64,000 nt of DNA from Candidatus Omnitrophota bacterium (GCA_041650835.1 JBAZKL010000002.1:270477-334476), one strand, 5' to 3'. Shown: positions 8,146 to 53,784, counted from the stretch's first letter. Notes: generated by a model from the letters alone, not told the origin. Translations and numbers: made by a program.

Positions 8146-8252
8146 ACCGGAATTATTCCCGCGAATAGCTTCAATTTAAAATACCTGCCACAAAAATTAA
8201 CTAAAAATTACCTAACTATAAATATCACTAAGCTTTAAAATGTAATTATCAT

Positions 8253-8280
8253 TGACAACAAGGGGTTTTCTTTGTATATT
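8253..8280 (+). promoter_or_regulatory. Sigma70-type promoter TTGACA-16-TATATT heading the 8.3-27.2 kb gene block
   Basis: TTGACA 8253-8258 and TATATT 8275-8280 in a 170-bp AT-rich intergenic region that follows 8 kb of packed housekeeping genes. Confidence 0.45.
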
Positions 8281-8316: not shown

Positions 8317-8565
8317 ATGGCTGAAAACTCTAATGAAAACAAACCTATCATGACCACCAAAGAGGTCGCCGAATATTTAAACATTCACCCCTTGACCGTG
8401 AATAAATACGCGAGGGAAGGCAAGATCCCCGCGTTTAAAATAGGCACCGATTGGCGTTTCCACAAAAGTTATATTGAAAATTGGATCAAAGATAAAGTAA
8501 CTCATAATGTCGCGGGAAAAGAGCGAAGGAAGAGTGCGACTGCGGCTTTGAATCCTGAAGGATAA
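8317..8565 (+). CDS. Excisionase-family (MerR-superfamily HTH_17) DNA-binding protein
   Basis: TTKEVAEYLNIHPLTVNKYAREGKIPAFKIGTDWRF is a canonical excisionase-type helix-turn-helix. It is the first gene after the promoter. Confidence 0.6.
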   Translation: MAENSNENKPIMTTKEVAEYLNIHPLTVNKYAREGKIPAFKIGTDWRFHKSYIENWIKDKVTHNVAGKERRKSATAALNPEG

Positions 8566-8567
8566 CC

Positions 8568-9611
8568 ATGAAAACATTTGCCATTCTTTTGAATCCCGCT
8601 ACTATTGTCGAGCTCAAACGCTTACTGCCCGGGGCGCGCTTCCTTCCGAATGCGGCACTCGAATTCTTATTGCGGAAGAACCTCCCGCTTAAAGTAATCA
8701 GGCTTAAAGAAATCACTTCTTCGCGGGGAGAGAAAATCTCCGGATATCTGATCATTTGGCCGGTTTTGAGGAAAACTATCGCTTCGCTTGATAAAGAAAT
8801 AATCAAAGAAAAGATCATTGAAGCGGGTTTGCTCGCGGGGCGCTTAGGTGCCCGGATCATCGGCACCAATGGCTCATACGGGCTTTCTGCCCTGGACTTA
8901 ACGGGCGTCACCCGGAAGATCAAGATACCTTTTACCAGCGGGGAGTCCCTTTTAAGCTGGTCATTCTTTGAGTCTCTTTTTTTATCGACTCAAGAAATTG
9001 GCCTTGAACTCAAAGATGCTTCAATCGCCATAATCGGGGCCAATTCTACGCTCGGCATGCTTTGCGCCCGAAAGCTGGCTACCTGCGCTTTGAACATCAT
9101 ACTCGCGGATACTGACGTAGAAAAACTTAACGCGTTCAAGGAAACGCTTATCTCCCGGAAGGCACAAGAGGATAAACAAAGCTCTCTCACGGTGATCTCA
9201 ACCTATGAACTGCCTCAAAAAGCGGCTCATGCGGATATTTTCATCCCGGTATCCAATGCTGCTTGTGAACAACTTACCCATATCAACTTAAAACCGAAAA
9301 GCATCATTTGCGCTGTTTCTGATTGCCAATATCTCGAAACAATAGCAGCACTCCTCAAAGATGTCACGGTTATAAAAGGCGGCATTATTAAGATGCCGCC
9401 ATCGATTGACCTGGGAGTAGATCTCGGGTTACCCGGCAATTTAATAAACGCAGCGCTTGCCGAGCCGATCTTATTGGCATTTGAAGGTAAAACGGGGACT
9501 TTTTCTCTCGGGGAAGCGACAAATATTAACAGGCTTGAGGATATCGCCGATATCGCTGTTCAATACGGCTTTGAGATCTATAATCCCCTCAAGCAGTCAC
9601 TCGTTCATTAA
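8568..9611 (+). CDS. Acyl-ACP reductase (AAR)-like protein; divergent paralog lacking the putative catalytic Cys
   Basis: Collinear with the cyanobacterial AAR fold: Rossmann segment IAIIGANSTLGMLCARKLA and C-terminal LAFEGKTGTFSLGEATNINRLEDI...GFEIYNP versus AAR ...[23 protein letters not shown]...GFQP. The position matching the AAR C(FAE) cysteine reads AALAEP. Confidence 0.5.
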   Translation: MKTFAILLNPATIVELKRLLPGARFLPNAALEFLLRKNLPLKVIRLKEITSSRGEKISGYLIIWPVLRKTIASLDKEIIKEKIIEAGLLAGRLGARIIGTNGSYGLSALDLTGVTRKIKIPFTSGESLLSWSFFESLFLSTQEIGLELKDASIAIIGANSTLGMLCARKLATCALNIILADTDVEKLNAFKETLISRKAQEDKQSSLTVISTYELPQKAAHADIFIPVSNAACEQLTHINLKPKSIICAVSDCQYLETIAALLKDVTVIKGGIIKMPPSIDLGVDLGLPGNLINAALAEPILLAFEGKTGTFSLGEATNINRLEDIADIAVQYGFEIYNPLKQSLVH

Positions 9612-9626
9612 CTTATCGCTCAGTAT

Positions 9627-10223
9627 ATGTGGTATAAAATCTTTCGCACGGGATGCATTCTCTTCCTGAAGCTGTTTTTCCGGCTTAAAATAGAAGGCCG
9701 GGAGAATCTGCCCAAAAAGAGCAATTTTATCGTAGTGGCAAATCATTCCAGCTTTATGGATCCGTTTGTCGTCGCGGCGGCCATACCCGCAAAGATCTAT
9801 TGTATCGCTTCCCGCTCATTATACGCGTTCCCTCAGTTAAAATGGGCGCTGCGTAAGCTCGACTGCCTGCCGACAGGCGCATCATCCGAATGCGCCATCG
9901 ACCTTTTAGTTAAGAATAATATCGTAGGATTGTTCCCGGAAGGAGGGATAAGCAGAGACGGTAAATTACGCGATTTTAAACGGGGGGCGGCACTTTTAGC
10001 GATGAAAACCGGCCGGCCGATAGTTCCGTGCGCGATCTCAGGGACTTTCGAAGCGCTTCCCTTAAAAGCGAGATTCCCGCGCCTGGTCCCCATATCGATA
10101 ACCATATGCAAGCCCGTTTTTTTATTAAAAGAGTTCGAGGAAGTCATCGATGATACCGACCTGCAGGAAGGCGTCACGCGGATAAAAAACGCAATAAAGG
10201 AAAAGCTAAATGCAAAACAATGA
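9627..10223 (+). CDS. 1-acyl-sn-glycerol-3-phosphate acyltransferase family (PlsC/LPLAT)
   Basis: H(X)4D motif VVANHSSFMDP, motif III LFPEGGISRDG, and an N-terminal hydrophobic anchor. Confidence 0.75.
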   Translation: MWYKIFRTGCILFLKLFFRLKIEGRENLPKKSNFIVVANHSSFMDPFVVAAAIPAKIYCIASRSLYAFPQLKWALRKLDCLPTGASSECAIDLLVKNNIVGLFPEGGISRDGKLRDFKRGAALLAMKTGRPIVPCAISGTFEALPLKARFPRLVPISITICKPVFLLKEFEEVIDDTDLQEGVTRIKNAIKEKLNAKQ

Positions 10224-11805
10224 TCTCATAGAAATAAGCGTTTCAAAATTGATCCCCGCGAAAAAATGGAGGGTGATCAGGTTATTGACAAAAGTCAATG
10301 AATTCCCCAGCTACATGCCGAATGTCAAAGAAGCGACCGTACTGGAGAAAGTGCATAACACCATCAAAACCAGGTGGAAGATCCAGGTTGACAGCGTGCC
10401 CATCAGCTGGACGGAAGTCGATACGCTCAAGCTTACCCACAACGAGATCTCGTTTCATTCCACGGAAGGGGACCTTCAGGAATTTAAAGGCGCTTGGAAT
10501 TTCCAGGACGACCCGCAAGGGACGATCGTGAGCGTCAATGTTTCGCTTAAGATCGATATTCCCGCGATAAAAGAGTTCGCGGAAAGCTATATAAAAAAGC
10601 TGCTCACTAAAAACTTTGAAGCGATGTTGGAGGCGATCGAAAAGAAGATCATCTCTCTGCGCTACGATAGTTATAAACACGGCAACATTGACAAAGTCGC
10701 CGGATTTGGCATTATCGCTCATCCCTACGATTTCTCTCATTTAGAAAAATGCTTTAAGATGCTCAATCCCGGCTACAGCGTCAGCTCGCCTGAATTTGTC
10801 AGCCAGCTCTTCCATGTCAGCCCATCGTTTAAACTCTATGATATTAACGCTTTTAAATCTCAGACCGGGGAAACCGTGAACGGATCGTTCATGATCGCCA
10901 CCTTTATTCCCGATATGATGGAGAAGGACATCTGGAGCGTATTCTCAAAAGTGGTGCGTGCCTGCAAGATCGCCGAAAAACACGGCATCGGCATTGTCAC
11001 CTTAGGAGGGTTCACTTCTATCGTCGCTGAACGGATCGGGCAGGAGGTCGCCTCCGAGGTAGATATCGCGGTCACCTCGGGAAACACCTTTACGGCGGCA
11101 ATGGCTGTCGACGGGGTTAATAAAGCGGCGGATTTAGTAGGCCTTGATATCGGTAAATCCACTTTAACGATCATAGGCGGCACGGGAGATATCGGAAGCG
11201 CCTGCGCGAGGGTCTTTGCCGGTAAAGTAAAAAACCTTATCATTACCGGCAGGACAAAATCTCATTTAAGTAACCTAAGCGCTGAGCTCAAAAGAACCAA
11301 AAAAGCCCGCGTAACGGCATCACTTGACAATAAAAAAGCGGTTCAAGGAGCCGATATCATCATTGCCGTTGCCAGCGCTACAACACCCATCCTCGAGATC
11401 GATTGGTTTAAACCGGGAGCTCTCGTGTGCGATGTCGGCTATCCGAAGAATATTTCCCATGCTCCGACGCAAAGAAACGATATCTTTGTATTTTCCGGGG
11501 GATTAGCAAAAAGCCCGACTCCGGTGAGCTTTCCCATCGATTTTTCCCTCCCGTCGCCGCAGGTGATCTACGGGTGTTTCGCTGAAGGAATAATCCTAGC
11601 CCTGGAAAAACGCTTTGAGAATTACAGCTTTGGAAGAGGCAATATTACAACGGAAAAAATAGACGAGATACGCGCTTTAGGCAAAAAACACGGTTTTGTT
11701 GTCGCTGATTTTTATTGGGGCGACACCCTCATAGACGCTTCGCTTATAGAAAGGATCCAAAGCATCGTTCATGAAAATAAAACTCATCGCGCCCAAAAGG
11801 CTTGA
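10210..11805 (+). CDS. SRPBCC (START/Coq10-like lipid-binding) domain fused to an acyl-ACP reductase (AAR) domain
   Basis: N-terminal 150 aa has the SRPBCC pattern (…WKIQVDSVPISWTEVDTLK…FQEFKGAWNF). The C-terminal 340 aa aligns along its length with cyanobacterial AAR: LGGFTSIV, GGTGDIGSACARVF, VGYPKN, CFAEGIILALE, SFGRGNITTEKIDEI. Confidence 0.65.
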   Translation: MQNNDLIEISVSKLIPAKKWRVIRLLTKVNEFPSYMPNVKEATVLEKVHNTIKTRWKIQVDSVPISWTEVDTLKLTHNEISFHSTEGDLQEFKGAWNFQDDPQGTIVSVNVSLKIDIPAIKEFAESYIKKLLTKNFEAMLEAIEKKIISLRYDSYKHGNIDKVAGFGIIAHPYDFSHLEKCFKMLNPGYSVSSPEFVSQLFHVSPSFKLYDINAFKSQTGETVNGSFMIATFIPDMMEKDIWSVFSKVVRACKIAEKHGIGIVTLGGFTSIVAERIGQEVASEVDIAVTSGNTFTAAMAVDGVNKAADLVGLDIGKSTLTIIGGTGDIGSACARVFAGKVKNLIITGRTKSHLSNLSAELKRTKKARVTASLDNKKAVQGADIIIAVASATTPILEIDWFKPGALVCDVGYPKNISHAPTQRNDIFVFSGGLAKSPTPVSFPIDFSLPSPQVIYGCFAEGIILALEKRFENYSFGRGNITTEKIDEIRALGKKHGFVVADFYWGDTLIDASLIERIQSIVHENKTHRAQKA

Positions 11806-13234
11806 AACGTGGGATGAAAATTTCTGGGATTTAAGAACACTCTCTCAACTGACGCGCAAATACGCAGGAGGAGCGCCACTGGCGCTCCCCAGCTTAGCGG
11901 CACTGACTCCGAACGATGTTGAAGTAATACTTACCGATGAAAATGTTGAACCGGTCGATTTCGATGAAAAAGTCGACTTAGTAGGGATAACGGGAATGAC
12001 CTGCGTGATCCCGCGCGCCTACGCGATCGCGGATGAGTTCAGGAAAAGAAGGGTCCCGGTCATTATGGGAGGCATACACGCTTCTATGGTGCCGCAGGAA
12101 GCCGCGCAACACTGCGATTCGGTCGTTATCGGAGAAGCAGAAGATATATGGAAGCAGGTAATAGAAGATGCCCAGAAGGGCACTTTGCAAAAAACGTACC
12201 GCGCCCCCGGATTCCCCGACCTCACCCAAGCACCCGTCCCTCGCTGGGACCTCTTGAAAAACGAGCGCTATTGCTATTTCACCGTTCAAACCGGCCGCGG
12301 CTGCCCCTTTGATTGCGAGTTCTGTTCCGTGCAGAAATTCAACGGGAGGAATTACCGCTCCCGGGACATTGACCTGGTTTTAAAAGAAATATCCTTATTA
12401 AAGAGCTTTGATGAAAAAAGGTCGTTTTTCTTTGTCGACGATAATCTACTCGCGAGAAAGGATTACGCGAAAGACCTTTTCACGCGGCTCATTGAGTACC
12501 GGATAAAATGGTGGTGCCAGGCCTCAGTGGACAGCCTCAAAGACGATGAAACACTTACGTTGATGTTCAAATCAGGCTGCAGGGAAATATTCGTCGGCTT
12601 TGAATCAGTGCAGCAAAACAGTTTACGCGCGATGCACAAAACTCACATGAACAAGGCCGATGAATATAAAGACATTATTGCCAAAGCCCACGCTCATGGA
12701 TTATCGATCTTCGGATCATTCATCTTAGGAAGCGACTCTGACAATAGCGCTATTTTCCAAGAAACCCGAGATTTTATCAAAGAAACAAATATGGCTTTCG
12801 CTATGATCAACGTATTAACGCCTCCGCCCGGGACGGCGCTTTATTCGAGGCTGGAAAATGAGCAACGCCTTTTACCGTGCCCCTGGAATCAATACGACGG
12901 AGAACACGTGACCTTTACGCCTCATATCTTATCACTCCAGGAATTACGTGAAAAAAGGATCGAGCTCATAAAGGATCTTTACGCTTACAAAAATTTGTAC
13001 TCGAGGCTTTCACACCTCTGGAGCAAGGGAGTATTCTTACGGGAAAGAGGGCGCAAAGGATTATTTTCTAAAGGACGTATCTTATTTTCTCTCCTCATGA
13101 TCTTTCGCGCTTCCTGGTCCCAAACGGTCTTTACCTGGAAATGCTTATGGAGAAAAAACGCCACATCGGTCATAACAGTTTTACTTGCGATCAGTTTCCA
13201 TGATTATGCGCAGCGCCTTAAGGCAAAAAAATGA
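11771..13234 (+). CDS. B12-binding domain radical SAM protein
   Basis: N-terminal cobalamin-binding Rossmann domain (MKIKLIAP…VDLVGITGMT…MGGIHAS) followed by a radical-SAM CxxxCxxC (GCPFDCEFCS). Overlaps the upstream stop by 35 nt and the downstream start by 4 nt. Confidence 0.8.
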   Translation: MKIKLIAPKRLETWDENFWDLRTLSQLTRKYAGGAPLALPSLAALTPNDVEVILTDENVEPVDFDEKVDLVGITGMTCVIPRAYAIADEFRKRRVPVIMGGIHASMVPQEAAQHCDSVVIGEAEDIWKQVIEDAQKGTLQKTYRAPGFPDLTQAPVPRWDLLKNERYCYFTVQTGRGCPFDCEFCSVQKFNGRNYRSRDIDLVLKEISLLKSFDEKRSFFFVDDNLLARKDYAKDLFTRLIEYRIKWWCQASVDSLKDDETLTLMFKSGCREIFVGFESVQQNSLRAMHKTHMNKADEYKDIIAKAHAHGLSIFGSFILGSDSDNSAIFQETRDFIKETNMAFAMINVLTPPPGTALYSRLENEQRLLPCPWNQYDGEHVTFTPHILSLQELREKRIELIKDLYAYKNLYSRLSHLWSKGVFLRERGRKGLFSKGRILFSLLMIFRASWSQTVFTWKCLWRKNATSVITVLLAISFHDYAQRLKAKK

Positions 13235-15402
13235 ACTATACGTTTAACCTTTATTCGATACCGACATTTTTAACCGCACTTTTTCTTTTCAGCCTGGGTT
13301 TATCCGTTTTTTTACGGGATAAAAGGTCGGATATTAATTTCAGCTTTCTTTTAGTATGTTTATCCGCCACCATTTGGCAGATGGGTTATTCTTTCGTCTA
13401 TTTAAGCGCAGATCAACATACCGCGCGTATTTGGCAGAAATTCGTATATTTCGGGATCCCATTCCTATCCCCCGCGATGTACCACTTTTCAACCGCGTAC
13501 CTTAAACTGAAGCGGCAAAGGAAATATGTCATTTTATCTTATATTTTCGGCGTTTTCTTCCTTGTCATTAACCTTTTTTCGAATTTACTGGTAAGCGATG
13601 TAACGAAATATTTCTGGGGATATTATAAGAAAGCGGGGCCTTTGTACACCATTTTTCTCATTTTCTGGCTCGTCCCGGGAATTTCGACTATTTACAACTT
13701 ATACCGGGAGCGTAAAAAATTTACCAGCCCTCTTGAGCGGGAAAGAAGAAAATACATCTTTATCGCATTTTCCATCGTATTCATCGGATTCTGGGATTTC
13801 ATACCTGCCTATGGGGTTAATATTTATCCCTTTGGTTTTATCGGCGTAGTCGCATGCCTTTCCACGATAGCATACGCCATTGTGAAATACCGTCTTTTGG
13901 ATATTACCGTTGTTATCACGCGCGCGGCAGTATTTTTGGCGGTTTATTCCATAGTATTGGGGATCCCGTTTATTCTTTCCGCGGCACTCAAAGAATGGTT
14001 CATGAGGCACCTGGGCTCAAATTGGTGGATGGGGCCGTTTTCCGCCTTGGTCATCTTAGGTACCGGCGGGCCGTTTGTTTACGTTTACCTTGAAAAAAAG
14101 GCGCAATCGATACTATTACGGGAACAACGCCGTTATCAGGAAATTCTCAAGCATATAGCAGTTGATCTATCCCGGATACGCAATTTACAAAAACTGATCG
14201 ATTATATCGCTCTTACGGTAACCGATGTTGTCCGTATTTCCCACACGATCATATATGTTCATGATGCCAAAAAAGACGTTTTTCTTTTAAAAGCCGGCAC
14301 TCACTTAAAAGATTCCCAGCTGCAGGCGATCGACCGGAAGAATATCCTGATCTCCTGGCTTGAGAAAAAAAAGGAGCCGTTAGTATACGAAGAAATCAAG
14401 CACCGCGCTCATGAAACTGCCGATCCTGACTTTAAGAAGCTGGAAGATCAAATGAGAAAACTCAACGCCGCGGTTATTGTGCCCTGTTTCCTGCAGGAAA
14501 AAATAATGGACTTACTTGTCCTGGGAGAGAAAATCTCGGGAAAGATCTATAATTCAGACGATTTAACGAATTTTTCTTTTTTAGCCAGCGAAGCGGCCCT
14601 GGCAACAGAGAACGCTCAATTATACGGCAAGATCGAGGACGAAGTTAAACAGCGCACCGAAGAATTAGTCGATGTGCAGAAACAGCTTGTTCAAGCCGAA
14701 AAACTGGCTACCGTAGGCACCCTTGCCGGAGGAGTGGCCCATGAGATCAATAACCCGTTAACGGCGATATTGACTAATGTGCAAATACTCCTGATGAGCG
14801 GTGACACTCTGGATACCGATTCAAAAGAATCATTAGAGCTTATAGAAGAAGCAACGAAGCGCTGCCGAAACATTGTTCAAAAACTAATGGCATACGCGAA
14901 GAAGCCGCTGGAGGAGTCAAAGGTCGGCAGGGTATTGATATCCGACATATTAAATAAAGTGCTCGCGTTCTTAGGCTACCAGTTTGAACAAGATAACATA
15001 AAGATAGAAATAGAGGAAAGGGAAAAGAATTGTTTTGTTCTCGGCAACCAGAATGAATTAGAACAAGTACTAACGAATATCCTCATTAATGCCAAAGACG
15101 CTATCATAGGATTTAAAAAAGGCGGGACTATCGCTATTTCAGTAGCCAGAAGCGGCAAATGGATAAAAATCCAGATCAAAGACGAAGGTATCGGTATTCC
15201 CCGTGAGGTCATTCATAAAATATTTGACCCGTTCTTTACCACCAAGGATGTCGGCAAGGGATTAGGCCTCGGTTTATCGATATGCCAATCAATTATTGAA
15301 AAACACAAAGGGTTGGTCACGGTTGAGTCAGAAGTCAATAAAGGGACCATGTTCAACATTTTACTGCCGGATGCCAAAGAGATAAACGCCATTACAATCT
15401 AA
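13231..15402 (+). CDS. Sensor histidine kinase with N-terminal 7TM sensor, GAF-like, HisKA and HATPase_c domains
   Basis: Seven hydrophobic helices in the first 270 aa. Canonical H-box VAHEINNPL. HATPase N/G boxes (…NAKDAI…, GKGLGLGLS). Confidence 0.85.
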   Translation: MNYTFNLYSIPTFLTALFLFSLGLSVFLRDKRSDINFSFLLVCLSATIWQMGYSFVYLSADQHTARIWQKFVYFGIPFLSPAMYHFSTAYLKLKRQRKYVILSYIFGVFFLVINLFSNLLVSDVTKYFWGYYKKAGPLYTIFLIFWLVPGISTIYNLYRERKKFTSPLERERRKYIFIAFSIVFIGFWDFIPAYGVNIYPFGFIGVVACLSTIAYAIVKYRLLDITVVITRAAVFLAVYSIVLGIPFILSAALKEWFMRHLGSNWWMGPFSALVILGTGGPFVYVYLEKKAQSILLREQRRYQEILKHIAVDLSRIRNLQKLIDYIALTVTDVVRISHTIIYVHDAKKDVFLLKAGTHLKDSQLQAIDRKNILISWLEKKKEPLVYEEIKHRAHETADPDFKKLEDQMRKLNAAVIVPCFLQEKIMDLLVLGEKISGKIYNSDDLTNFSFLASEAALATENAQLYGKIEDEVKQRTEELVDVQKQLVQAEKLATVGTLAGGVAHEINNPLTAILTNVQILLMSGDTLDTDSKESLELIEEATKRCRNIVQKLMAYAKKPLEESKVGRVLISDILNKVLAFLGYQFEQDNIKIEIEEREKNCFVLGNQNELEQVLTNILINAKDAIIGFKKGGTIAISVARSGKWIKIQIKDEGIGIPREVIHKIFDPFFTTKDVGKGLGLGLSICQSIIEKHKGLVTVESEVNKGTMFNILLPDAKEINAITI

Positions 15403-15427
15403 AGGCAAGAAAAGGAGCGAACACGCT

Positions 15428-15802
15428 ATGAGTAAGAATATCCTGGTGATCGATGACGAAGATTTAGTGACGGAAAGCTTAAAACGCCTCCTTAAGAAGC
15501 AAGGGTATTTCGTCGCTGTTGCCGGTAATAACGCGGAAGCCATGAAAAAGATACAAGAACTCGATTTTGACCTCGTGGTATCGGATATACGGATTCCCGA
15601 AGTAAACGGGGTTGAAATTATCAAAAATATAAGGCATTATTATAAGGTATCCCAGAAAAAGCCCATACCGGAGATATTGATCACCGGATACTCCAGTGAT
15701 GAGCATTTGAAAGAGGCGCAGGCACTCAAAGTTGCCGATTATCTCTACAAGCCATTTGATATAAAAGATTTCCTGGAGATAATCAAAAAAAATCTAAAGT
15801 AA
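15428..15802 (+). CDS. Single-domain response regulator (receiver only)
   Basis: ILVIDDE…DLVVSDIRIPEVNG…K receiver motifs with no output domain. Confidence 0.8.
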   Translation: MSKNILVIDDEDLVTESLKRLLKKQGYFVAVAGNNAEAMKKIQELDFDLVVSDIRIPEVNGVEIIKNIRHYYKVSQKKPIPEILITGYSSDEHLKEAQALKVADYLYKPFDIKDFLEIIKKNLK

Positions 15803-15803
15803 T

Positions 15804-16274
15804 ATGAACCAACCGATATTTACCGCGGCCAAACAGCGCGAATTCGTCTTCGAACTCATCGTAACACAGGGGGATACGACCCCTTATGGAAGCGCTTCCT
15901 TTATTAACTATATCCGCTGGTACAATATTGCCCGGGACGCGCTCCTGGTCTGGAAAAACCTGGGGTTTGAGGACAGTTTAAAGCCGTTCATCGAAACCGA
16001 GGTTTCTTTCTGTGACGTGCAGTATAAGCGCGAAGCTGTTTTGCAGGACGAGATAGTCATTAAGGTCAACGCCGCGGATATAAAAGAAAAAGAATTTAAC
16101 CTGCTCTTCACCTTGATCCGTAAAGATAACGCGTTATTGATCAGCCTGGGGAAACAAAAGATATGCCTGCGCAACTCAAAAACAGGGGAAGTGGTCAATC
16201 TACCGGAAAATCTGGTCAAAAATATTTTGTCGCCTATTGCCGTCGATGAAAAATCACTGCTGTTCAAATATTAA
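15804..16274 (+). CDS. Hotdog-fold thioesterase-like protein (4HBT family)
   Basis: About 150 aa, secondary-structure pattern consistent with a hotdog fold. Assignment from weak family resemblance and context only. Confidence 0.4.
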   Translation: MNQPIFTAAKQREFVFELIVTQGDTTPYGSASFINYIRWYNIARDALLVWKNLGFEDSLKPFIETEVSFCDVQYKREAVLQDEIVIKVNAADIKEKEFNLLFTLIRKDNALLISLGKQKICLRNSKTGEVVNLPENLVKNILSPIAVDEKSLLFKY

Positions 16275-16281
16275 CGCTTAA

Positions 16282-16695
16282 ATGAAAACATTCAATGCGG
16301 GGTTTGATATCTATTTTGAGGACCTTTCAGCTTCAGGGAAAGTCCATTTGGAAAAGATCGGCGAATGGATGTCCATGACCCGCGAACAGTATTTTAAGTC
16401 TTCCTGCCCTGACCACCTCAAGTTCGTTGAAAGCCCCATACAGATGTTTACCATGGGATTGTCCATTACCGTAACGGGGAGCTCCCGCTGGGCGGATAGG
16501 ATCCAGGCGGTCCTTACGACCGCTAATATCAAAAAAATATCATTTGAAATGCATATAGACTTTAAAAACGAACGCACCGGCAAAGTGATCGCGAAAGGCG
16601 TGCAAAAGGTAGCCTTTGTCGATGTCGTAGCCAAGAAGTTCACTAATATTCCCGACGACATGAAACAGGTGATCATAAACTTTATTAACCCGTAA
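16282..16695 (+). CDS. Hotdog-fold thioesterase-like protein (4HBT family), second copy
   Basis: 137 aa paralog-like neighbour of the preceding gene. Weak assignment. Confidence 0.4.
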   Translation: MKTFNAGFDIYFEDLSASGKVHLEKIGEWMSMTREQYFKSSCPDHLKFVESPIQMFTMGLSITVTGSSRWADRIQAVLTTANIKKISFEMHIDFKNERTGKVIAKGVQKVAFVDVVAKKFTNIPDDMKQVIINFINP

Positions 16696-16727
16696 AAAAG
16701 GCGGCAAAGAAGTTTTACCATGGCTCT

Positions 16728-17429
16728 ATGAAAATATTAAATAATTTATACAAATACCTGGGCGATGTGTTGATCAAAACCTTCATCCTTTTCGCGGTAT
16801 TGATCATCCCCTTAACTGCGGTGGCCCTTAAATTCAAGTATGACTCTGTCGCTTACGGATGGTTTATGGTGGCTTTTATCTTTATTTTATCCATAGAAAG
16901 GACGTGGGAAACTTTCTATTCTTTTCAGGAAAAAAGAAAACATAAATTATACGGCGATTGGACGCTCGCGGTAGTATCAGTCGCTTATATACTTTTGATC
17001 TTTACGACCTTATTCGAGTTCTTTGTTTTTCCTGTCACCCTGAACATTACCCTCTCGCTCTATGGGTTATTCCTCTTTATTGCCGGGTTTTTACTGCGCT
17101 TATCGGGGATAAAAACCCTGAACCATCAATGGACAGTCCATGCAGTAGGAGCGAGCAAAATAAAAGATATTTACATTGTTAAATCGGGACCGTATAAATA
17201 TATGCGTCACCCGATCTATTTGGGCGTTATTCTCGAAGTCCTCAGTATCCCCTTGATCTGGAACGCTTACTTGGCTTTTTTTATCGCTTTAGCCTTAAAT
17301 GTGCCTTTGCAGATCATACGCGCTTATTTAGAAGAAAAAACATCGCTGCGGAGGTTCGGCGCAGATTTTACCAGGTACCTAAAAGAAACACCGGCATTCT
17401 TTCCTTATCGTATCACTAAAAGAAAATAA
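16728..17429 (+). CDS. Isoprenylcysteine carboxyl methyltransferase (ICMT)/PEMT-family membrane methyltransferase
   Basis: Multi-TM protein with the C-terminal SGPYKYMRHPIYLG…E……F core characteristic of ICMT/PEMT. Confidence 0.6.
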   Translation: MKILNNLYKYLGDVLIKTFILFAVLIIPLTAVALKFKYDSVAYGWFMVAFIFILSIERTWETFYSFQEKRKHKLYGDWTLAVVSVAYILLIFTTLFEFFVFPVTLNITLSLYGLFLFIAGFLLRLSGIKTLNHQWTVHAVGASKIKDIYIVKSGPYKYMRHPIYLGVILEVLSIPLIWNAYLAFFIALALNVPLQIIRAYLEEKTSLRRFGADFTRYLKETPAFFPYRITKRK

Positions 17430-19621
17430 TGTTCACCTCAATCAATCATTTCACCCTTTCAGCGCTCTTAACTTCAATAACTACGCTCTTCCTCGGGCTT
17501 TTTGTTCTGTTCAGGGGAGGGACGAAGCGAAAATCGTATTTCATTTTTACTCTTTACACGTTAAGCATCTCTTTATGGAGTTTTTCCGTTTCGCGCTTTG
17601 ACTCGACCCTCATTGATGACGTCCTGTTTTGGGGCCGCTTCCTCCATATGGGGGCGATCTTTATCCCTATTTTCGGACTACACTTTATACTTCACCTGCT
17701 TGAGATCAACAAACAAAATAAAGCAATTATTATAAGTTCCTACGCCGTCGGCGCGGTATTTACGTACTTTAATTTATTCACCTTGAAATTGATCAAGGGG
17801 ATCACCTATCGGTCAAATTATTCTTTTCCGACCCCCAGCACTTTATATCCGGCATTCTTTTTGTTTTTTGTTTTATGCACCGGATTCTGCTTAATGAAAT
17901 TATACTTCGGCTTTAAAGATTCAAAAAGCGAGATCGCGAATCAAAGAAAGTACCTTTTTTGGGGGTCATTGATCGGATACACCGGCGGGTTGAATAATTT
18001 CCTCATTACCGCTAATATTGAGATATTCCCGCTGCACCCATTCGGCGTTTACGCCATACTTATTTATGTCGCGATTTCCACGTACGCAATTATACGTTAC
18101 CGCCTTATGGACATATCGGTAGCCGTCACGAGAACGGGAGTATTTGTGGCAGTATACACCATAGTGCTGGGGATCCCGTTCGCGGTGGCTTATTTTTTAC
18201 GCTTGTGGCTGATCGGTATATTCGATATAAACTGGTGGGCAATACCGCTGTCGATAATGGCGGTTTTGGCTACCGTCGGACCGTTTATTTATATCTATTT
18301 TGAACGCAAGGCCGAAGACAGGCTTTTAAAAGAGCAAAAGCGCTATCAAAACACCCTGCGCCAGGCATCGATCGGCATGACGCGTATCCGCAGTTTACGC
18401 AAGTTGCTTGAGCTTATCGCGCATATAATCACGAAGACCGTGCGAATATCATTCGCCGCGGTATATCTTTTTCATGAAGCCGACGAAGAATACGTATTAC
18501 AGGTCTGCAGGGTCAAGAATAAAATGCTGGCGAGCAAACTATCGGCTCACTGCGCGTTGATCGAATGGATAAAAAACAACCAGGCCCCCTTGCTTTACGA
18601 AGAAATTAAACGCAAGATGATCGACGAAAAAAACACGGATTACCGATTGGTCGAAGAAGAGATGAGGCTCCTGGGTGCTTCGGTAATCCTTCCCAGTTTG
18701 CTGGAAAATAAGCTTTTAGGGCTATTGGTCCTGGGGAACAAACTTTCCGGCCGGATGTTCACCCCCGAAGACTTAAGCGTGTTCCAGGTCCTCGCCAGCC
18801 AGGCGGCCCTCGCCATTGAAAACGCCCAATTCTATGAAGATGCCAAAGAAATGCAGGGCCAGATCGCCCAGGCTGAAAAAATGGCTACTATCGGCACCAT
18901 GGCTGACGGATTGTCACACCAGATCAATAACCGCTTTTACGCGCTCTCCTTGATAGCGGGGGACACCATCGACACCATCAAAATGACCGACGCTTCAAAT
19001 TGTTCCACTGAGATCAAAGACATGTTAGGCCAGATCAACCACGCCCTTGAACGCATCCAATTCAATGTCCTCCAGGGAGGAGAGGTGGTCAAAGGTATCT
19101 TAAAATACACCCGTAAGGGCGATGAAGGCTTTGAAGCCCTTACCATGGACCAGGTCATTGACGGTACTTTAGCCATGGTGCAGTATAAAGTCAAATTAGC
19201 TGATTTCGACCTCATCCGGGAATACCCCTGCGACCTGGCGAAGATCAAAGGCAACCTCGTGCAACTGGAAGAAGTATTCTTCAACTTTATCGATAATGCC
19301 TATGATGCTATTGTAGAACGCAGATCAACGCTTAAAGAAGAAGGGTATCGGGGAAAAATAATCATCCGCGCCCAGGCACTGGATGCTGTTATGCGCATAG
19401 AGATACAGGATAACGGAATGGGAGTCAAAGAAGAAAACGCAAAAAAGCTCTTCACCCCTTTCTTTACCACTAAAGTATCTTCGCGCAGAGGCACAGGGCT
19501 GGGGTTATACGTCATCAACAAGATCATTACCGAAACCCATAAAGGCAAGATATTCATTGAATCACAGCATACAATCGGCACGAAATTCATCGTCGAGCTG
19601 CCTATCGCCGCACAAACGTAA
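17429..19621 (+). CDS. Sensor histidine kinase with 7TM sensor, GAF-like and atypical HisKA, plus HATPase_c
   Basis: Same architecture as 13231-15402. The H-box reads MADGLSHQINNRFYAL rather than HEINNP. ATP-lid GTGLGLYVINKI. The start overlaps the upstream stop (TAATG). Confidence 0.75.
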   Translation: MFTSINHFTLSALLTSITTLFLGLFVLFRGGTKRKSYFIFTLYTLSISLWSFSVSRFDSTLIDDVLFWGRFLHMGAIFIPIFGLHFILHLLEINKQNKAIIISSYAVGAVFTYFNLFTLKLIKGITYRSNYSFPTPSTLYPAFFLFFVLCTGFCLMKLYFGFKDSKSEIANQRKYLFWGSLIGYTGGLNNFLITANIEIFPLHPFGVYAILIYVAISTYAIIRYRLMDISVAVTRTGVFVAVYTIVLGIPFAVAYFLRLWLIGIFDINWWAIPLSIMAVLATVGPFIYIYFERKAEDRLLKEQKRYQNTLRQASIGMTRIRSLRKLLELIAHIITKTVRISFAAVYLFHEADEEYVLQVCRVKNKMLASKLSAHCALIEWIKNNQAPLLYEEIKRKMIDEKNTDYRLVEEEMRLLGASVILPSLLENKLLGLLVLGNKLSGRMFTPEDLSVFQVLASQAALAIENAQFYEDAKEMQGQIAQAEKMATIGTMADGLSHQINNRFYALSLIAGDTIDTIKMTDASNCSTEIKDMLGQINHALERIQFNVLQGGEVVKGILKYTRKGDEGFEALTMDQVIDGTLAMVQYKVKLADFDLIREYPCDLAKIKGNLVQLEEVFFNFIDNAYDAIVERRSTLKEEGYRGKIIIRAQALDAVMRIEIQDNGMGVKEENAKKLFTPFFTTKVSSRRGTGLGLYVINKIITETHKGKIFIESQHTIGTKFIVELPIAAQT

Positions 19622-19623
19622 TT

Positions 19624-20226
19624 ATGCACAGGTTCCTTACCGAGACAGTTTTTAGCTCTTTATACGGCATCATTACCGTTTTATTTGCCTGTGAACGCAT
19701 GACAGCCACGATATCCGCGGCACGGAAATCCGTAAAACAGCCCCCCCAGTTGCTCACCACTATCCCGTTGCTCACCTACTGCTTATTAGCTTTTGCGGCG
19801 GTCATTGAATATTTCATAGGGAGCAGGGCGCTCAATTACTGGATAAGCGCCTGCGGCTTCGCGATTTTTATGACCGGCATAAAACTTCGTACTGCAGCAA
19901 TTAAAGAATTTGCCGATAACTGGAATATACATATTACTGCCAAGTCCATAAAAAAGATCATAACTTCGGGGCCGTACTGTTTTGTCCGGCACCCGTATTA
20001 TTTAGCAGTCATACTTGAATTAACCGGTTTTTCATTAATTTCCAACTCATATTTTACCCTTACGGCGGTAGCGCTCATCCAACTGCCGCTGCTTTTAATG
20101 CGTATCGATCGGGAAGAAAAAGAGTTAGAAGATAAATTCCCCGGTATATATTTACCTTACAAGAAAACGGTTAACGCTTTATTGCCCGCCCTGCGGGGGC
20201 CGTTGAGGCAGACGAAAGGAAGATGA
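19624..20226 (+). CDS. ICMT/PEMT-family membrane methyltransferase, second copy
   Basis: SGPYCFVRHPYYLAVILE…REEKELEDKF core. Confidence 0.6.
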   Translation: MHRFLTETVFSSLYGIITVLFACERMTATISAARKSVKQPPQLLTTIPLLTYCLLAFAAVIEYFIGSRALNYWISACGFAIFMTGIKLRTAAIKEFADNWNIHITAKSIKKIITSGPYCFVRHPYYLAVILELTGFSLISNSYFTLTAVALIQLPLLLMRIDREEKELEDKFPGIYLPYKKTVNALLPALRGPLRQTKGR

Positions 20227-21266
20227 CCATGCATCAAGTATGCGATCTCATAAAGACTTTAGGAGCCAAGCAGGTAATTGATATTAAGAGGGCTCACGAA
20301 GAGATGTTAAAATATTCGCGCAGTTACATGACGCTCCATTGCATGGTCTGCCTCTTAAACGTCGGCTTCTTCGAAAGCATGGACGCGCAAGGAAAAGTAA
20401 ACTGCGCTGACTTCTCGCGACAGAAGCATTTAGAAAAAGAAATACTGGCTATCCTCTGTGAATACCTTTTTGCCACGCGCATGTTCGGCCGTTCGGGAAA
20501 CGACTATTTTCTAACAAAACAGGGCGCGTATTCGCTTACCTATGCTCAAGGGGCATTTTATTTCATCCACGCGTACGCTCCAATATTCGAGAACCTGGAT
20601 GCGCTGCTCAAAAAACAAAAAGTATACGGAAAAGATATTTTCCGCAGGGAAAGATCTGTTTCTAAAGCAAGCGCGGAAACCGAAAAATGGCTGCCATTCC
20701 CCATCGCCTGCGACATCATCAGGAAATACAAATTTAAAAGAGTGCTGGATCTCGGATGCGGGAGCGCCGAATTCCTCATGAGCCTCTGCAGCCGGGAAAA
20801 AGGGCTGTACGCCTGCGGCATTGATGTCTCCGCGGAATCCATCCAGTATGCCCAAGGCTTGATCAATAAGCGGGGAATGGACAAAAAAATAAGATTACTT
20901 GTTGGAGATATCTTTAAAATTGATACAATAGATGAGGATTTAGGTACTGTCGATGCCATTACCAGCATGTATGTCGTGCATGAGTTTATCGGAGATGACT
21001 TAACAAAAATAACCGAGCTTTTCAAAAAAATCAGGGCCCGATTCAGGGGCGCCTCCGTCATCATCTGCGAGCTCTGCAGGCAGCCCTCGGCACTAATACG
21101 CAAAAACGCTTCCGCTATCGCTGAACATCATCTCTTTCACGCGCTGGCCAAGCAACGCCTTCTCTCCCGGGAAGAGTGGAGGGAATTATTCAAGAAAACT
21201 GGTTATGAGGTCGTTGAAGAACGGCGCTTTGATTTCGCCAGCCAATGTTATTTTGTCTTAAAATAA
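20223..21266 (+). CDS. Class I SAM-dependent methyltransferase (O-methyltransferase-like)
   Basis: Motif I VLDLGCGSAEFL and post-I acidic LLVGDIF, with an N-terminal helical domain like small-molecule O-MT dimerisation domains. Confidence 0.65.
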   Translation: MTMHQVCDLIKTLGAKQVIDIKRAHEEMLKYSRSYMTLHCMVCLLNVGFFESMDAQGKVNCADFSRQKHLEKEILAILCEYLFATRMFGRSGNDYFLTKQGAYSLTYAQGAFYFIHAYAPIFENLDALLKKQKVYGKDIFRRERSVSKASAETEKWLPFPIACDIIRKYKFKRVLDLGCGSAEFLMSLCSREKGLYACGIDVSAESIQYAQGLINKRGMDKKIRLLVGDIFKIDTIDEDLGTVDAITSMYVVHEFIGDDLTKITELFKKIRARFRGASVIICELCRQPSALIRKNASAIAEHHLFHALAKQRLLSREEWRELFKKTGYEVVEERRFDFASQCYFVLK

Positions 21267-21273
21267 AGAAATT

Positions 21274-23454
21274 ATGAACAATTTCGCAATTTCAGCCTTA
21301 TTAACTTCCCTGACCACGTTATTTTTGGCATTATTCGTATTTATCAAGAACCCTAATGCCAAACTAAACAGGATTTTCACGCTTTATTCCTTGTGCATCG
21401 CTGTGTGGAGCTTCTTTGTCTCAATACACGGCTTTACCAGAAGCCAGGCGACATCAATGTTTGCGGCGCACGCCCTGCATATCGGCGCGGCATCTATTCC
21501 CGTCACTTTTGTGCATTTTGTCATGGTATTCCTTAACGATATAATCACCCCGTTCAAAAAATGGCTCCTGCGGCTCATGTATCTCATAGCCTGCGTATCA
21601 GCAACGGCAGGATTTACCCCTTTATTCGTAAAAGAGGTCACTGCCCGGCATAACGTCCTCTATCTCATGAAGCCCGGTGGGGTATGGTACCATCTTTTTG
21701 TATTTTATTTTGCTGCCTGCGTTTCTTACGGTTTATACCGCCTTTTCCTGGAATATATACGCTCAAAAGGCCTGCGGCATAACCAGATGAAATACCTCTT
21801 CTGGAGCTCGCTCTTTGGGTTTATCGGCGGGATCAATAATTTCCTTATCATCTATGATATCGATATATTCCCCTTGAACCCCTACGGCACGTACGCCGTA
21901 CCGCTTTATGTGTGCGTCGCCACCTATGCCATCATCAAATACCGTTTCATGGATATTAAAGTTGCCATAACCCGCACCGGTATTTTTGTGCTTGTTTACA
22001 CTTTTGTTTTAGGGATCCCCTTTGCGGTAGCATTATTGGCGAAATATTGGCTGATCAGCGTATTTAACCTTAATTGGTGGGCGGTCCCCTTGATCTTAAT
22101 GGCGGTTTTAGCGACTGTCGGCCCGTTCATTTATATTTACTTAGAAAGCAAAGCGGAGGGGAGGATCCTCAAAGAACAAAAAAGGTACCAGGACACGTTA
22201 AAACAGGCCTCGATCGGAATGACGCGCATTAGAAGCCTGCGCAGGCTTTTGGACCTGATCACCCACATCATTACCAAAACGGTGAGGATTTCTTTTGCGG
22301 CGATCTATCTTTTTCACGCGGATGAGCAGGAATTCACTTTACAGGTATGCAGGGACAGGGGAAGAGTGCTTACTAAAAAATTACCGGCGAGAAATCCTCT
22401 CTTTACCTGGCTCAACAAAAACAGGCAGCCGCTGGTATATGAAGAAGTAAAGAGGAAAATGCAGGACTTTAATGAACCGGTATACAAAACGCTGGAAGAG
22501 AACATGCGCCTGTTGACCGCGGCAGTCATAATCCCCAGCTTCCTGGAAAACAAGCTTTTAGGCTTTATTGTGCTCGGAGATAAACTTTCCGGCCAAATTT
22601 ACACGCTTGAAGACCTCAATGTTTTCCAGGTCCTTGCCAGCCAGGCAGCCTTAGCCATTGAAAACGCGCAATTCTATGAAGAAGCCAAAGAAATGCAGAG
22701 CCAGATCGCCCAGGCTGAGAAGATGGCTACTATCGGCACTATGGCTGACGGATTGTCGCACCAGATCAATAACCGCTTTTACGCGCTCTCCTTGATCGCG
22801 GGCGACACCATCGATACTATCAAAATGACCGATACTTCAGCCTGCTCCAAAGAAATAAAAGACATGTTTGAACAGATAAACCACGCCCTTGACCGCATCC
22901 AGACCAATGTTTTACAGGGAGGCGAAGTAGTGCGAGGCATCTTAAAATATACCCGTAAAGGAGATGAAGGCTTTGAAGCCCTGACCATGGACCAGATAAT
23001 CGACGGGACTCTCGCTATGGTCCAATACAAAATAAAACTTTCTGAAATAGACTTTGTCCGCGAATACCCGCAAGATCTGGCAAAAATAAAAGGCAACCTC
23101 GTACAGTTAGAAGAAGTATTCTTTAATTTTATCGATAATGCCTATGACGCTATTGTTGAACGCCGCACCATGCTCAAAGAACCGGGCTACAAAGGAAAGC
23201 TCGTCATCCACGCGAGGCGACAAGACAATATTATCCGCATAGAGGTGCAAGACAACGGGATGGGAGTAAAAGAAGAGAACTTGAACAAGCTTTTCGCACC
23301 CTTCTTTACGACAAAAGTATCTTCAAGGAGGGGGACAGGGCTTGGTTTATATGTTATCAACAAGATCATCACTGAGACCCATACTGGAAAGATATTCATA
23401 GAATCCACGCATAAATCGGGCACCCGCTTTATCGTAGAGCTGCCTGCCGCCTAA
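21274..23454 (+). CDS. Sensor histidine kinase, recent paralog of 17429-19621
   Basis: C-terminal 1.1 kb is roughly 90% identical in nucleotide sequence to 18.5-19.6 kb (…QAALAIENAQFYEEAKEMQSQIAQAEKMATIGTMADGLSHQINNRFYALSLIAGDTIDTIKMTD…). The 7TM sensor region has diverged. Confidence 0.75.
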   Translation: MNNFAISALLTSLTTLFLALFVFIKNPNAKLNRIFTLYSLCIAVWSFFVSIHGFTRSQATSMFAAHALHIGAASIPVTFVHFVMVFLNDIITPFKKWLLRLMYLIACVSATAGFTPLFVKEVTARHNVLYLMKPGGVWYHLFVFYFAACVSYGLYRLFLEYIRSKGLRHNQMKYLFWSSLFGFIGGINNFLIIYDIDIFPLNPYGTYAVPLYVCVATYAIIKYRFMDIKVAITRTGIFVLVYTFVLGIPFAVALLAKYWLISVFNLNWWAVPLILMAVLATVGPFIYIYLESKAEGRILKEQKRYQDTLKQASIGMTRIRSLRRLLDLITHIITKTVRISFAAIYLFHADEQEFTLQVCRDRGRVLTKKLPARNPLFTWLNKNRQPLVYEEVKRKMQDFNEPVYKTLEENMRLLTAAVIIPSFLENKLLGFIVLGDKLSGQIYTLEDLNVFQVLASQAALAIENAQFYEEAKEMQSQIAQAEKMATIGTMADGLSHQINNRFYALSLIAGDTIDTIKMTDTSACSKEIKDMFEQINHALDRIQTNVLQGGEVVRGILKYTRKGDEGFEALTMDQIIDGTLAMVQYKIKLSEIDFVREYPQDLAKIKGNLVQLEEVFFNFIDNAYDAIVERRTMLKEPGYKGKLVIHARRQDNIIRIEVQDNGMGVKEENLNKLFAPFFTTKVSSRRGTGLGLYVINKIITETHTGKIFIESTHKSGTRFIVELPAA

Positions 23455-45260: not shown

Positions 45261-45758
45261 ATGTTAAATGAAATACTTCAAGGATTGCGGGACTTACCGA
45301 AAGAATGGATCGTATTTATTGTGGCGGCATTGCCTGTTTCAGAATTAAGAGGGGCGATCCCTTTAGGGCTATCTTTGGGAATGCCTTTATCTAAAGCCTT
45401 CTGGCTGTCAATTTTGGGAAACGCCAGCTTTGTCGCGCCAGCGCTTTTTTTATGCGACCCGATTTCACGGAAATTAAGGAGATTATCCTGGTTCGCGCGT
45501 TTTTTTACCTGGATCGAGAAACGCACCATGAAAAATGCCGATTCCATACAAAAATACGAAGCACTCGGCCTTGCCATTTTTGTAGGAATCCCCCTACCCA
45601 TGACCGGAGCCTGGAGCGGAGTGATCGCTGCTTCTCTTTTTAAGATACGCTTTCGATACGCCTTTCTTTCGATCATGGCAGGAATAATCGGCGCGGGGAC
45701 AATCGTCAGTGTACTCTGCGCGCTGGGGATCATGAGCTGGAAGGCGGTAACACAATGA
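45261..45758 (+). CDS. Small polytopic membrane protein (COG2426 / small multidrug-export-like)
   Basis: Four predicted TM helices, 165 aa. Weak family resemblance only. Confidence 0.35.
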   Translation: MLNEILQGLRDLPKEWIVFIVAALPVSELRGAIPLGLSLGMPLSKAFWLSILGNASFVAPALFLCDPISRKLRRLSWFARFFTWIEKRTMKNADSIQKYEALGLAIFVGIPLPMTGAWSGVIAASLFKIRFRYAFLSIMAGIIGAGTIVSVLCALGIMSWKAVTQ

Positions 45759-46258: not shown

Positions 46259-46263
46259 AAGCC

Positions 46264-46494: not shown

Positions 46495-46499
46495 ACCAG

Positions 46500-46880: not shown

Positions 46881-46892
46881 AAAGGGGGAGCC

Positions 46893-47228: not shown

Positions 47229-47252
47229 CTCATGCTTCAAATAAACTGATCG

Positions 47253-47549: not shown

Positions 47550-47589
47550 AAGATAATTTTCTTGACACAACAGGATAATTCAGTTAGGC

Positions 47590-50820: not shown

Positions 50821-50822
50821 TT

Positions 50823-51975: not shown

Positions 51976-51976
51976 T

Positions 51977-53766: not shown

Positions 53767-53784
53767 ACCAAGGAGGTTTCCCCC

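Follow-up and report, generated by a model that had tools for sequence, protein, structure and literature searches.

The gene at positions 10210-11805 of a 64,000-nucleotide (nt) stretch of DNA from Candidatus Omnitrophota bacterium (GCA_041650835.1 JBAZKL010000002.1:270477-334476; the whole stretch is referred to as the window) is predicted to encode an acyl-ACP (acyl carrier protein) reductase-like, or AAR-like, enzyme which carries an SRPBCC domain as a partner in cis and which lies within a kinase-linked lipid module. We favour, with moderate confidence, the reading that this fusion would reduce its substrate to an aldehyde and brings along its own carrier for hydrophobic molecules, and that its product would feed a pathway to lipid derivatives which varies between lineages and is coupled to a sensor in the membrane.

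The open reading frame contains all four motifs which the initial annotation had quoted for the reductase half: LGGFTSIV (amino acids (aa) 265-272), GGTGDIGSA (323-331), GYPKN (410-414) and CFAEG (456-460). There is no transmembrane-like segment in the fusion, the highest 19-residue hydropathy being 1.47. The N-terminal half had been described as a hydrophobic-ligand pocket of the SRPBCC type, and both the profile and the structure searches bear out the SRPBCC assignment. In Pfam it matched PF03364 (Polyketide_cyc) across aa 22-139 with an E-value of 8.4e-15 and 55.6 bits (gathering score 23.4), and PF10604 matched aa 8-145 with 36.1 bits compared to a gathering score of 27.4. Against solved structures a sequence search returned the START-type protein TTHA0849 (2d4r) with E 4e-12. 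We then used an AlphaFold2 model of the fusion, built with 41 family members (predicted local distance difference test 84, predicted template-modelling score 0.80), and compared its N-domain to known folds with Foldseek: on 2d4r it reached a template-modelling score (TM) of 0.92 with a root-mean-square deviation (rmsd) of 1.6 Å and 24% identity. We can see a helix-grip fold in the model, with the sheet formed by aa 6-114 and followed by a long helix (118-156) which runs into the first strand of the reductase, and the interdomain linker is ordered. Mean pairwise identity within the fusions is 61% for the SRPBCC part and 73% for the reductase part, and the SRPBCC part is under constraint. The label 'RatA toxin' given by JGI to some relatives was rejected (26.4 bits for NF007999 vs a cut-off of 258); the neighbours of the fusion are lipid enzymes and there is no toxin-antitoxin pair context.

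For the C-terminal half the NCBIfam model TIGR04058 (AcACP_reductase) aligned to aa 166-497 from model position 2 to 335 of 339 (E 3.1e-53, 181.3 bits). The PigE model scored 172 bits over the N-terminal reductase part of PigE, which is near the 181 of the AAR model. Pfam only returned Rossmann-level matches for this half and no dedicated family. The best sequence match among solved structures was the AAR of Synechococcus elongatus (SeAAR; 6jzq/6jzu, E 9e-40 with phmmer), followed by PigE with E 3e-28. Foldseek placed the C-domain of the model on the AAR crystals 6jzy, 6jzu and 6jzq at TM 0.81-0.85, rmsd ~3 Å and 30% identity (E 6e-26 to 1e-22), and the terminal amidation domain (TAD) of the carmabin synthetase was matched as well (E 1e-18, 16-18% identity). 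The equivalog cut-off of TIGR04058, 449.7 bits, was not reached by the fusion. Because 181 bits fall this far below it, the reductase half is an AAR homologue and not an AAR equivalog: the assignment to the AAR family that had been made initially stands, but the protein is not the cyanobacterial enzyme. Annotations as a shikimate or amino-acid dehydrogenase and as an ornithine cyclodeaminase were rejected, as the underlying matches are Rossmann-level or far sub-threshold.

The closeness of the PigE and AAR scores is one of several observations in favour of a different function for the N-domain, in which a catalytic SRPBCC (a TcmN/ZhuI-like cyclase/dehydratase) would release and cyclise a keto-aldehyde or enal in a PigD/PigE-like heterocycle route. 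PF03364 is the polyketide cyclase/dehydrase family, and ARO/CYC polyketide cyclases are, along with abscisic acid (ABA) receptors, among the lower-ranking Foldseek matches of the N-domain (TcmN, ZhuI and WhiE ARO/CYC at TM 0.71-0.83). Some relatives also pair the module with a thiamine pyrophosphate (TPP) enzyme (loci L087, L088) or with a class-III aminotransferase (L065, L078, L081, L085), which is the enzyme set of PigD/PigE; the cluster in the window, however, has neither. The best match of the domain is the non-enzymatic TTHA0849, with 24% identity compared to 14-17% for the cyclases, there are no type II polyketide synthase (PKS) genes nearby, and the deeply conserved SRPBCC residues are mostly aromatic or glycine residues of the fold signature (W56, F82, G87, G94). 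We therefore regard a cyclase as unlikely.

We next compared the active site to SeAAR, taking the residue roles from the structure paper (PMC7089970), in which C294 is the acyl-enzyme thioester cysteine, and mapping them via the phmmer alignment. The stretch YGCFAEG of the fusion aligns on FACFAEA of SeAAR, which contains C294, so that the cysteine put forward in the initial annotation as the acyl-thioester residue lines up as C456. It is invariant across 41 fusions, and the cysteine is retained in 16 of 17 deep relatives. The dinucleotide-recognition loop G323-G329 lines up in the same way and is likewise invariant across the 41 fusions, and 222-VASM-225 of SeAAR corresponds to VASA at 387-390. 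Two of the three arginines which hold the NADPH phosphate are kept (R189 as R348, R314 as R476); both of them and the VASA stretch are invariant or nearly so among the 41 fusions. The residues that dock ADO, the partner of AAR in alkane formation, fared less well: R73 and R118 fall in gaps, R79 is replaced by Ser, and only K80 and Y247 are retained. In SeAAR the N-terminal subdomain forms the exit of the acyl tunnel and the ADO dock; in the fusion it is this subdomain to which the SRPBCC domain is joined.

With the SeADO sequence, checked against the PDB before use as a tblastn query, we detected no ADO gene in the window and 92 related loci (1.02 Mb). Judged by its residues the fusion appears to retain everything needed for AAR-type chemistry but does not look like the cyanobacterial alkane enzyme, because its score lies below the equivalog cut-off, the ADO-docking residues are mostly lost and ADO is missing from the window and the 92 loci. 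An ordinary cyanobacterial-type AAR that works with ADO to make alkanes would fit the homology and the conserved active site, and yet with three of five docking residues gone we consider it extremely improbable. ADO also requires O2 and Omnitrophota are mostly anaerobes.

Under the reading that we favour, a fatty acyl group would be transferred from acyl-ACP (or acyl-CoA) to Cys456 and bound there as a thioester; NADPH, held at GGTGDIG and with R348 and R476 next to its phosphate, would then give the hydride and a long-chain aldehyde would be released. Such a conversion of a fatty acyl thioester to the aldehyde is what the conserved catalytic machinery and the fold point to, and for PigE-N, a related AAR-like domain, reduction of a thioester to the aldehyde has been demonstrated (PMC8341465). 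The SRPBCC domain, held on the N-terminal subdomain of the reductase by the long ordered helix, would shield or receive the reactive hydrophobic aldehyde (or the acyl tail) and pass it to neighbouring enzymes. From the model and by analogy, holding or passing on the aldehyde product is its most likely role. The initial annotation had suggested that the SRPBCC domain may take over part of the role of ADO; its attachment to this subdomain, the loss of three of the five ADO-docking residues and the missing ADO in the window and the 92 loci are consistent with that idea.

The architecture is widespread. A word-indexed search returned at least 884 homologues of the fusion and the two domains are common to all 120 listed homologues (62-100% identity). 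An exhaustive search of 50%-identity representatives gave 319 clusters below E 1e-30, among them a few fusion clusters at 38-57% identity, a second and more distant fusion clade at 30-35%, some members of which have extra N-terminal domains, and many stand-alone AAR-like proteins of ~360 aa (33-43% identity). Across the species genomes of GTDB the full-length fusion was present in 80 of the 80 best loci with identities down to 43%, almost all of them in metagenome-assembled genomes (MAGs) or single-amplified genomes of Omnitrophota; the taxon labels of relatives are given here as deposited. An assembly or frameshift artefact is ruled out by the recurrence of the architecture in hundreds of independent contigs, including those of all 120 listed homologues. 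Several syntenic loci (L005, L008, L014, L016 and others, up to 90% identity) carry the deposited label 'uncultured Planctomycetales/Planctomycetia', and for one it is 'Candidatus Uhrbacteria'; such labels are probably placeholders or mis-binned Omnitrophota. The initial annotation was not aware of a description of this architecture. In the literature that we searched no paper joins acyl-ACP reductase with SRPBCC, polyketide cyclase or Omnitrophota, and searches on COG5322 and HisKA_7TM gave tangential papers only. In public data, on the other hand, the proteins are common and already carry pipeline names ('SRPBCC family protein', 'fatty aldehyde-generating acyl-ACP reductase', 'Long-chain acyl-ACP reductase'). 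The architecture is thus abundant in databases and apparently undescribed in the literature searched.

The closest unfused relatives are labelled Desulfobacterales, Planctomycetota and Brocadiia, and unfused SRPBCC and AAR-like genes lie near each other in Desulfobacterales and in unlabelled contigs (coordinates in Table 1). In L087 and L088 a stand-alone AAR-like gene is directly preceded by an SRPBCC gene of 148-160 aa and of the same subfamily. The genes of L089, which comes from a Desulfobacterales MAG, run LGT, SRPBCC, GMC/Fer4 oxidoreductase, AAR-like, AMP-ligase, ACP and radical-SAM (S-adenosylmethionine), so that one gene separates the SRPBCC from the AAR-like gene. With tblastn the separate SRPBCC genes of all three loci match aa 21-158 of the fusion. 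The SRPBCC/AAR pairing is older than the fusion. Fusion and conserved proximity together make a Rosetta-stone pair and therefore indicate that the two parts act together. The pairs in L087 and L088 are accompanied by an acetolactate-synthase-like TPP enzyme, which in L088 is followed by two acyl-CoA-dehydratase-activase-type proteins of 316 and 1049 aa, possibly PlsA/PlsR- or Ger-like. L087 also contains a giant gene (14303-17116; 8849-aa product, running off the locus), which lies a few genes further downstream than its split pair.

In the window the genes from 8317 to 15802, a context that the initial annotation had not noted, are tightly packed on the + strand with overlaps or very short gaps (Table 1). 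The best promoter match of the region lies inside the 171-bp gap before the first gene of this cluster, and we found no convincing + strand terminator between that site and 15402. The PlsC gene overlaps the start of the fusion by 14 nt, the B12 radical-SAM gene overlaps its end by 35 nt, and the kinase gene in turn overlaps the B12 radical-SAM gene by 4 nt. A ladderane-type reading of the radical-SAM gene was rejected (TIGR04072 with 87 bits vs a cut-off of 360); few loci have the gene and it is not part of the core. The sensor region of the kinase, with its seven transmembrane helices (7TM), has no relative among solved structures. Receiver-only genes also come after the kinase in L001, L003 and L087. 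The paralogue upstream of PlsC matched the structures 4ppm (E 1e-10) and 6jzz (E 2.5e-6), but reads NAALAEP in place of GCFAEG, with Ala for the Cys, and GANSTLG in place of GGTGDIG. The catalytic Cys is absent from 11 of 11 such upstream paralogues in related loci, and to judge by these replacements the paralogue is a probable pseudo-reductase which may serve the fusion as a regulator or scaffold.

Table 1. Features of the fusion gene and its cluster in the window, and unfused pairs in related loci.
Feature	Position	Strand	Basis or remarks
Sigma-70-like promoter match	8252-8280	+	TTGACA-17-TATATT, 11/12; consensus match only
HTH_17 (excisionase/MerR-like) small DNA-binding protein, first gene	8317-8565	+	PF12728, E 8e-16
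Cys-less AAR/PigE-N-like paralogue	8568-9611	+	347 aa; TIGR04058 E 8e-14; PigE model E 5e-25
PlsC-type (AGPAT/LPLAT) acyltransferase	9627-10223	+	PF01553 E 1e-26; T. maritima PlsC 5kym E 3e-20
SRPBCC-AAR fusion gene	10210-11805	+	531 aa, ATG start, TGA stop
SRPBCC (helix-grip) domain, aa 6-150	10225-10659	+	PF03364/PF10604, 2d4r match; C-terminal helix to aa 156 is the linker
AAR-type acyl-thioester reductase module, aa 166-497	10705-11700	+	TIGR04058, SeAAR structures
Dinucleotide-recognition loop GGTGDIG, aa 323-329	11176-11196	+	Aligns with SeAAR 162-GATGDIG-168
Cys456 codon TGT, putative acyl-thioester nucleophile	11575-11577	+	Alignment (SeAAR C294)
B12-binding radical-SAM enzyme (DUF4070 type)	11771-13234	+	PF04055, PF02310, PF13282
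HisKA_7TM sensor histidine kinase	13231-15402	+	PF16927, PF00512, PF02518
Single-domain response-regulator receiver (probable)	15428-15802	+	124 aa; DDE...D...K pattern in the open reading frame
Unfused SRPBCC/AAR-like pair, L088	5552-13021		
Unfused SRPBCC/AAR-like pair, L087	7512-13232		
Unfused SRPBCC/AAR-like pair, L089	4216-10113		

To see which of these neighbours are conserved we counted them with tblastn over 87 loci, covering the flanks of relatives only. Of the 58 loci with enough flank, 57 have a HisKA_7TM kinase on the same strand within 5 kb downstream of the fusion, in 31 cases directly adjacent, and no other neighbour is as well conserved. PlsC is located directly upstream in 53 of 78 loci and is missing from the clade at 43-47% identity, and a homologue of the HTH_17 gene occurs within 2.5 kb upstream in 43 of 78. 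The distant clade retains the kinase: in two of its loci (29-35% identity to the fusion) the order is fusion, class-III aminotransferase, kinase (L085) and fusion, kinase, receiver-cyclase (L086). The kinase also adjoins the split SRPBCC/AAR pair in L087. Another relative, P0130 (L090 715-3060; 781 aa), has a PilZ domain, which binds cyclic di-GMP (c-di-GMP), ahead of the SRPBCC-AAR and a HisKA_7TM-GAF kinase gene directly after it; its domain content suggests a tie between the module and second-messenger signalling.

Between the fusion and the kinase there is a variable slot. It is occupied by a GMC oxidoreductase in 8-10 loci, by an extended short-chain dehydrogenase/reductase (SDR) with a fatty-acyl-reductase-type NAD_binding_4 match in 6, by a formyltransferase-like protein in 5, by a class-III aminotransferase in 4 and by a protein of 511-532 aa with no family match in 3. 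The B12 radical-SAM gene is found in 3-4 related loci in addition to the window. Two loci each have an AONS/BioF/SPT/CqsA-family enzyme (L052, L058) or a second, Cys-containing AAR-like gene along with an ICMT methyltransferase; an AMP-ligase-ACP-PlsC protein (L028, right after the fusion) and a LuxD-like acyltransferase-methyltransferase occur in one locus each, and the TPP enzyme fills the slot in the split loci (L087, L088). Judged by their families it is plausible that the slot genes are all acyl, aldehyde or lipid-tailoring enzymes. The protein of 511-532 aa (L050 8516-10114; L001 10570-12105) sits after the extended SDR and has no Pfam or NCBIfam match; its 'HIPADG' stretch presumably recalls the HHxxxDG of wax-ester-synthase/condensation-type acyltransferases.

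The PlsC gene raises the main alternative explanation, namely that the cluster serves the synthesis of membrane ether or alkyl lipids. Reductase and PlsC would then act in the manner of ElbD and make precursors of 1-O-alkyl/alkenyl glycerolipids anaerobically, with the kinase as a sensor of membrane state which tunes the pathway rather than as a signal receptor. PlsC overlaps the start of the fusion and is adjacent to it in the majority of loci, the L028 protein and the fusion together have the four domain types of ElbD, and the six loci with the extended SDR carry a fatty-acyl-reductase-type enzyme after the fusion. Further support comes from the labels of the nearest unfused relatives, as Brocadiia members are reported makers of alkyl ethers (PMC11868695), from a report of matches to ElbD homologues in 93 of 267 Omnitrophota MAGs, and from the two activase-type proteins behind the split pair of L088, which may be PlsA/PlsR- or Ger-like. 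However, the clade at 43-47% identity and the distant fusions have no PlsC and yet have the kinase. The aminotransferases, AONS-like, TPP and formyltransferase-like enzymes of the slot resemble the tailoring of specialised metabolites rather than core lipid synthesis, the reductase of ElbD has a different fold, and we saw no AGPS-like or other known ether-forming enzyme in the window. We consider an ether-lipid pathway possible, though on the whole rather doubtful.

The conservation of the kinase can also be read the other way around: the fusion may mainly be a lipid-binding regulatory partner which presents a ligand to the kinase, with catalysis secondary or lost. Apart from the kinase being the most conserved neighbour, the PilZ domain fused on in P0130 and the lineage of Cys-less paralogues in the same operon are in line with this. 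So is P0123 (L092 4427-5935), a fusion behind a PlsC gene in which neither the Cys (now YSAFAE) nor the dinucleotide loop is left; its contig stops short of the kinase position, and by its sequence P0123 is a copy in decay or else a member without catalysis. Against a regulatory role stand the Cys, the dinucleotide loop and the phosphate-binding Arg, which are invariant in the fusion studied here and in nearly all relatives and would be hard to explain in the absence of catalysis. We judge a mainly regulatory fusion to be very unlikely.

Returning to the aldehyde-forming reductase with a built-in carrier, its operon would have as fixed parts the fusion and the 7TM sensor kinase with a receiver, with the HTH_17 gene in about half of the loci, and the larger clade would add the translationally coupled PlsC-type acyltransferase. 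The slot enzymes would be interchangeable lipid-tailoring enzymes, and the fusion would catalyse the first, committing step of a pathway that varies between lineages. The product would be derived from a fatty aldehyde and reside in the membrane, where it could be sensed by the co-transcribed 7TM kinase or be made under its control. Several points weigh against this reading. The score of the fusion is far below the AAR equivalog cut-off, so that substrate and product may differ, and the third phosphate-binding arginine of SeAAR, R193, is H352 in the fusion. For the TAD, which is AAR-like, amidation has been proposed in place of reduction. P0123 and the Cys-less paralogue together imply that some members act non-catalytically. 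The synteny counts are inflated by shared ancestry and are not phylogenetically independent, and the kinase linkage could reflect the regulation of membrane-lipid synthesis instead of the sensing of a product.

A further-reaching proposal, which we put forward only tentatively, is that SRPBCC-AAR, a swappable tailoring enzyme and the HisKA_7TM kinase form a so far unrecognised class of lipid-signal modules. In such a module a fatty-aldehyde-derived molecule would be produced next to the kinase that serves as its receptor within the membrane, the tailoring slot would diversify the ligand between lineages, and some variants would receive c-di-GMP input via PilZ. If true, this would amount to quorum-sensing-like or host-interaction signalling specific to Omnitrophota and relatives, and it would give the HisKA_7TM sensor domain its first functional assignment.

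Downstream of the fusion the window has three HisKA_7TM kinases which alternate with lipid-type enzymes on the + strand (13231-23454). The order is kinase, receiver, two 4HBT-like thioesterases, ICMT/PEMT-like methyltransferase, kinase-GAF, ICMT-like, SAM methyltransferase, kinase-GAF. In L001 and L003 a further HisKA_7TM-GAF kinase also lies behind lipid-type enzymes downstream of the fusion. From this array and the two loci we conclude that the pattern of an enzyme plus a 7TM kinase repeats beyond the fusion. The same window as the B12 radical-SAM gene holds a block for cobalamin salvage and uptake (45755-56511, +) with CobO/BtuR adenosyltransferase, periplasmic binding protein, FecCD permease, ABC ATPase, a histidine phosphatase (His_Phos_1 family), CobT, CobS and a TonB-dependent receptor. 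Between 28642 and 40255 (+) there is a type II secretion / type IV pilus-like set (T2SSE ATPase, T2SSF, N_methyl pseudopilins, PilM/PilN, secretin), followed by an HD_5 (HD-GYP-like) protein, a glycosyltransferase like monogalactosyldiacylglycerol synthase and a lipid A acyltransferase. All family-assigned open reading frames of the window are on the + strand and those of at least 150 aa on the minus strand all overlap + genes; the window shows a strong gene-strand bias.

AAR has been studied almost only as a cyanobacterial alkane enzyme, where the insoluble and reactive aldehyde is handed to ADO via a protein-protein tunnel. If the favoured reading is true, a built-in lipid-pocket domain which replaces ADO would solve the problem of aldehyde hand-off in a second, independent way, and the fusion could be a scaffold for engineering the production of aldehydes and alcohols. 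It would also mark a lipid pathway, conserved but so far not studied, of an uncultured phylum that is widespread, and its near-obligate pairing with a 7TM histidine kinase offers a testable candidate for what this sensor family detects. Should the ether-lipid explanation hold instead, the cluster would point to a way in which bacteria make alkyl lipids, known as geochemical biomarkers, without oxygen.

Among known systems the cyanobacterial AAR (S. elongatus, 6JZQ/6JZU/6JZY) is closest, with the same fold of three subdomains and homology over its full length. Both have the catalytic Cys, GxTGDIG, VAS(M/A), GYPKN with Y247 and the two phosphate-binding arginines, and for the fusion the same ping-pong reduction of a thioester to the aldehyde would be expected. 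Unlike AAR, the fusion has the 150-aa SRPBCC domain at its N-terminus and a conserved C-terminal tail of 30 aa, and its operon, which belongs to a candidate phylum that is not photosynthetic, also encodes an acyltransferase and a 7TM kinase. PigE-N of the prodigiosin 2-methyl-3-n-amyl-pyrrole (MAP) branch (4PPM; COG5322 fusions) is likewise an AAR-like reductase module with Cys and NAD(P)H which releases an aldehyde for tailoring, as would be the case here, and PigE/PigD are echoed by those relatives in which a class-III aminotransferase or a TPP enzyme follows the fusion. The partner in PigE is, however, a C-terminal transaminase dependent on pyridoxal phosphate (PLP), whereas that of the fusion is an N-terminal non-PLP SRPBCC pocket, and there is no pigment cluster here. 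The TAD of the carmabin/vatiamide synthetases (nonribosomal peptide synthetase-PKS; 9E4S-9E56) also has the AAR fold with an invariant Cys beside the nicotinamide and is part of a larger protein. It differs by its low identity, its specificity for NAD, its dimeric state, its feeding by a carrier protein in cis and the proposed amidation.

ElbD of Myxococcus xanthus (CoA-ligase-ACP-reductase-AGPAT) also pairs an acyl-thioester reductase with a PlsC/AGPAT acyltransferase. In contrast to the fusion its reductase is of the SDR / fatty-acyl-reductase type (NAD_binding_4), and it is a single chain with no SRPBCC domain and no linked kinase; of its domain set the window only has a separate PlsC/AGPAT gene and a reductase of the AAR fold. 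The helix-grip fold of the N-domain is common to SRPBCC/START binders (TTHA0849, Coq10, RatA) and ARO/CYC proteins (TcmN, ZhuI), but those are stand-alone or di-SRPBCC proteins, whereas the SRPBCC of the fusion is in cis with a reductase. Finally, in CqsA/CqsS and LqsA/LqsS the gene of an acyl-thioester enzyme adjoins that of a polytopic histidine kinase with no large extracytoplasmic domain, as in the cluster described here, and L052 and L058 even add an enzyme of the AONS/CqsA family, whereas the window has no AONS-family gene. The CqsA-type synthase is a PLP-dependent acyltransferase and not a reductase, and its kinase has six transmembrane helices and belongs to another family. The likeness to these signalling systems is an analogy of logic only.

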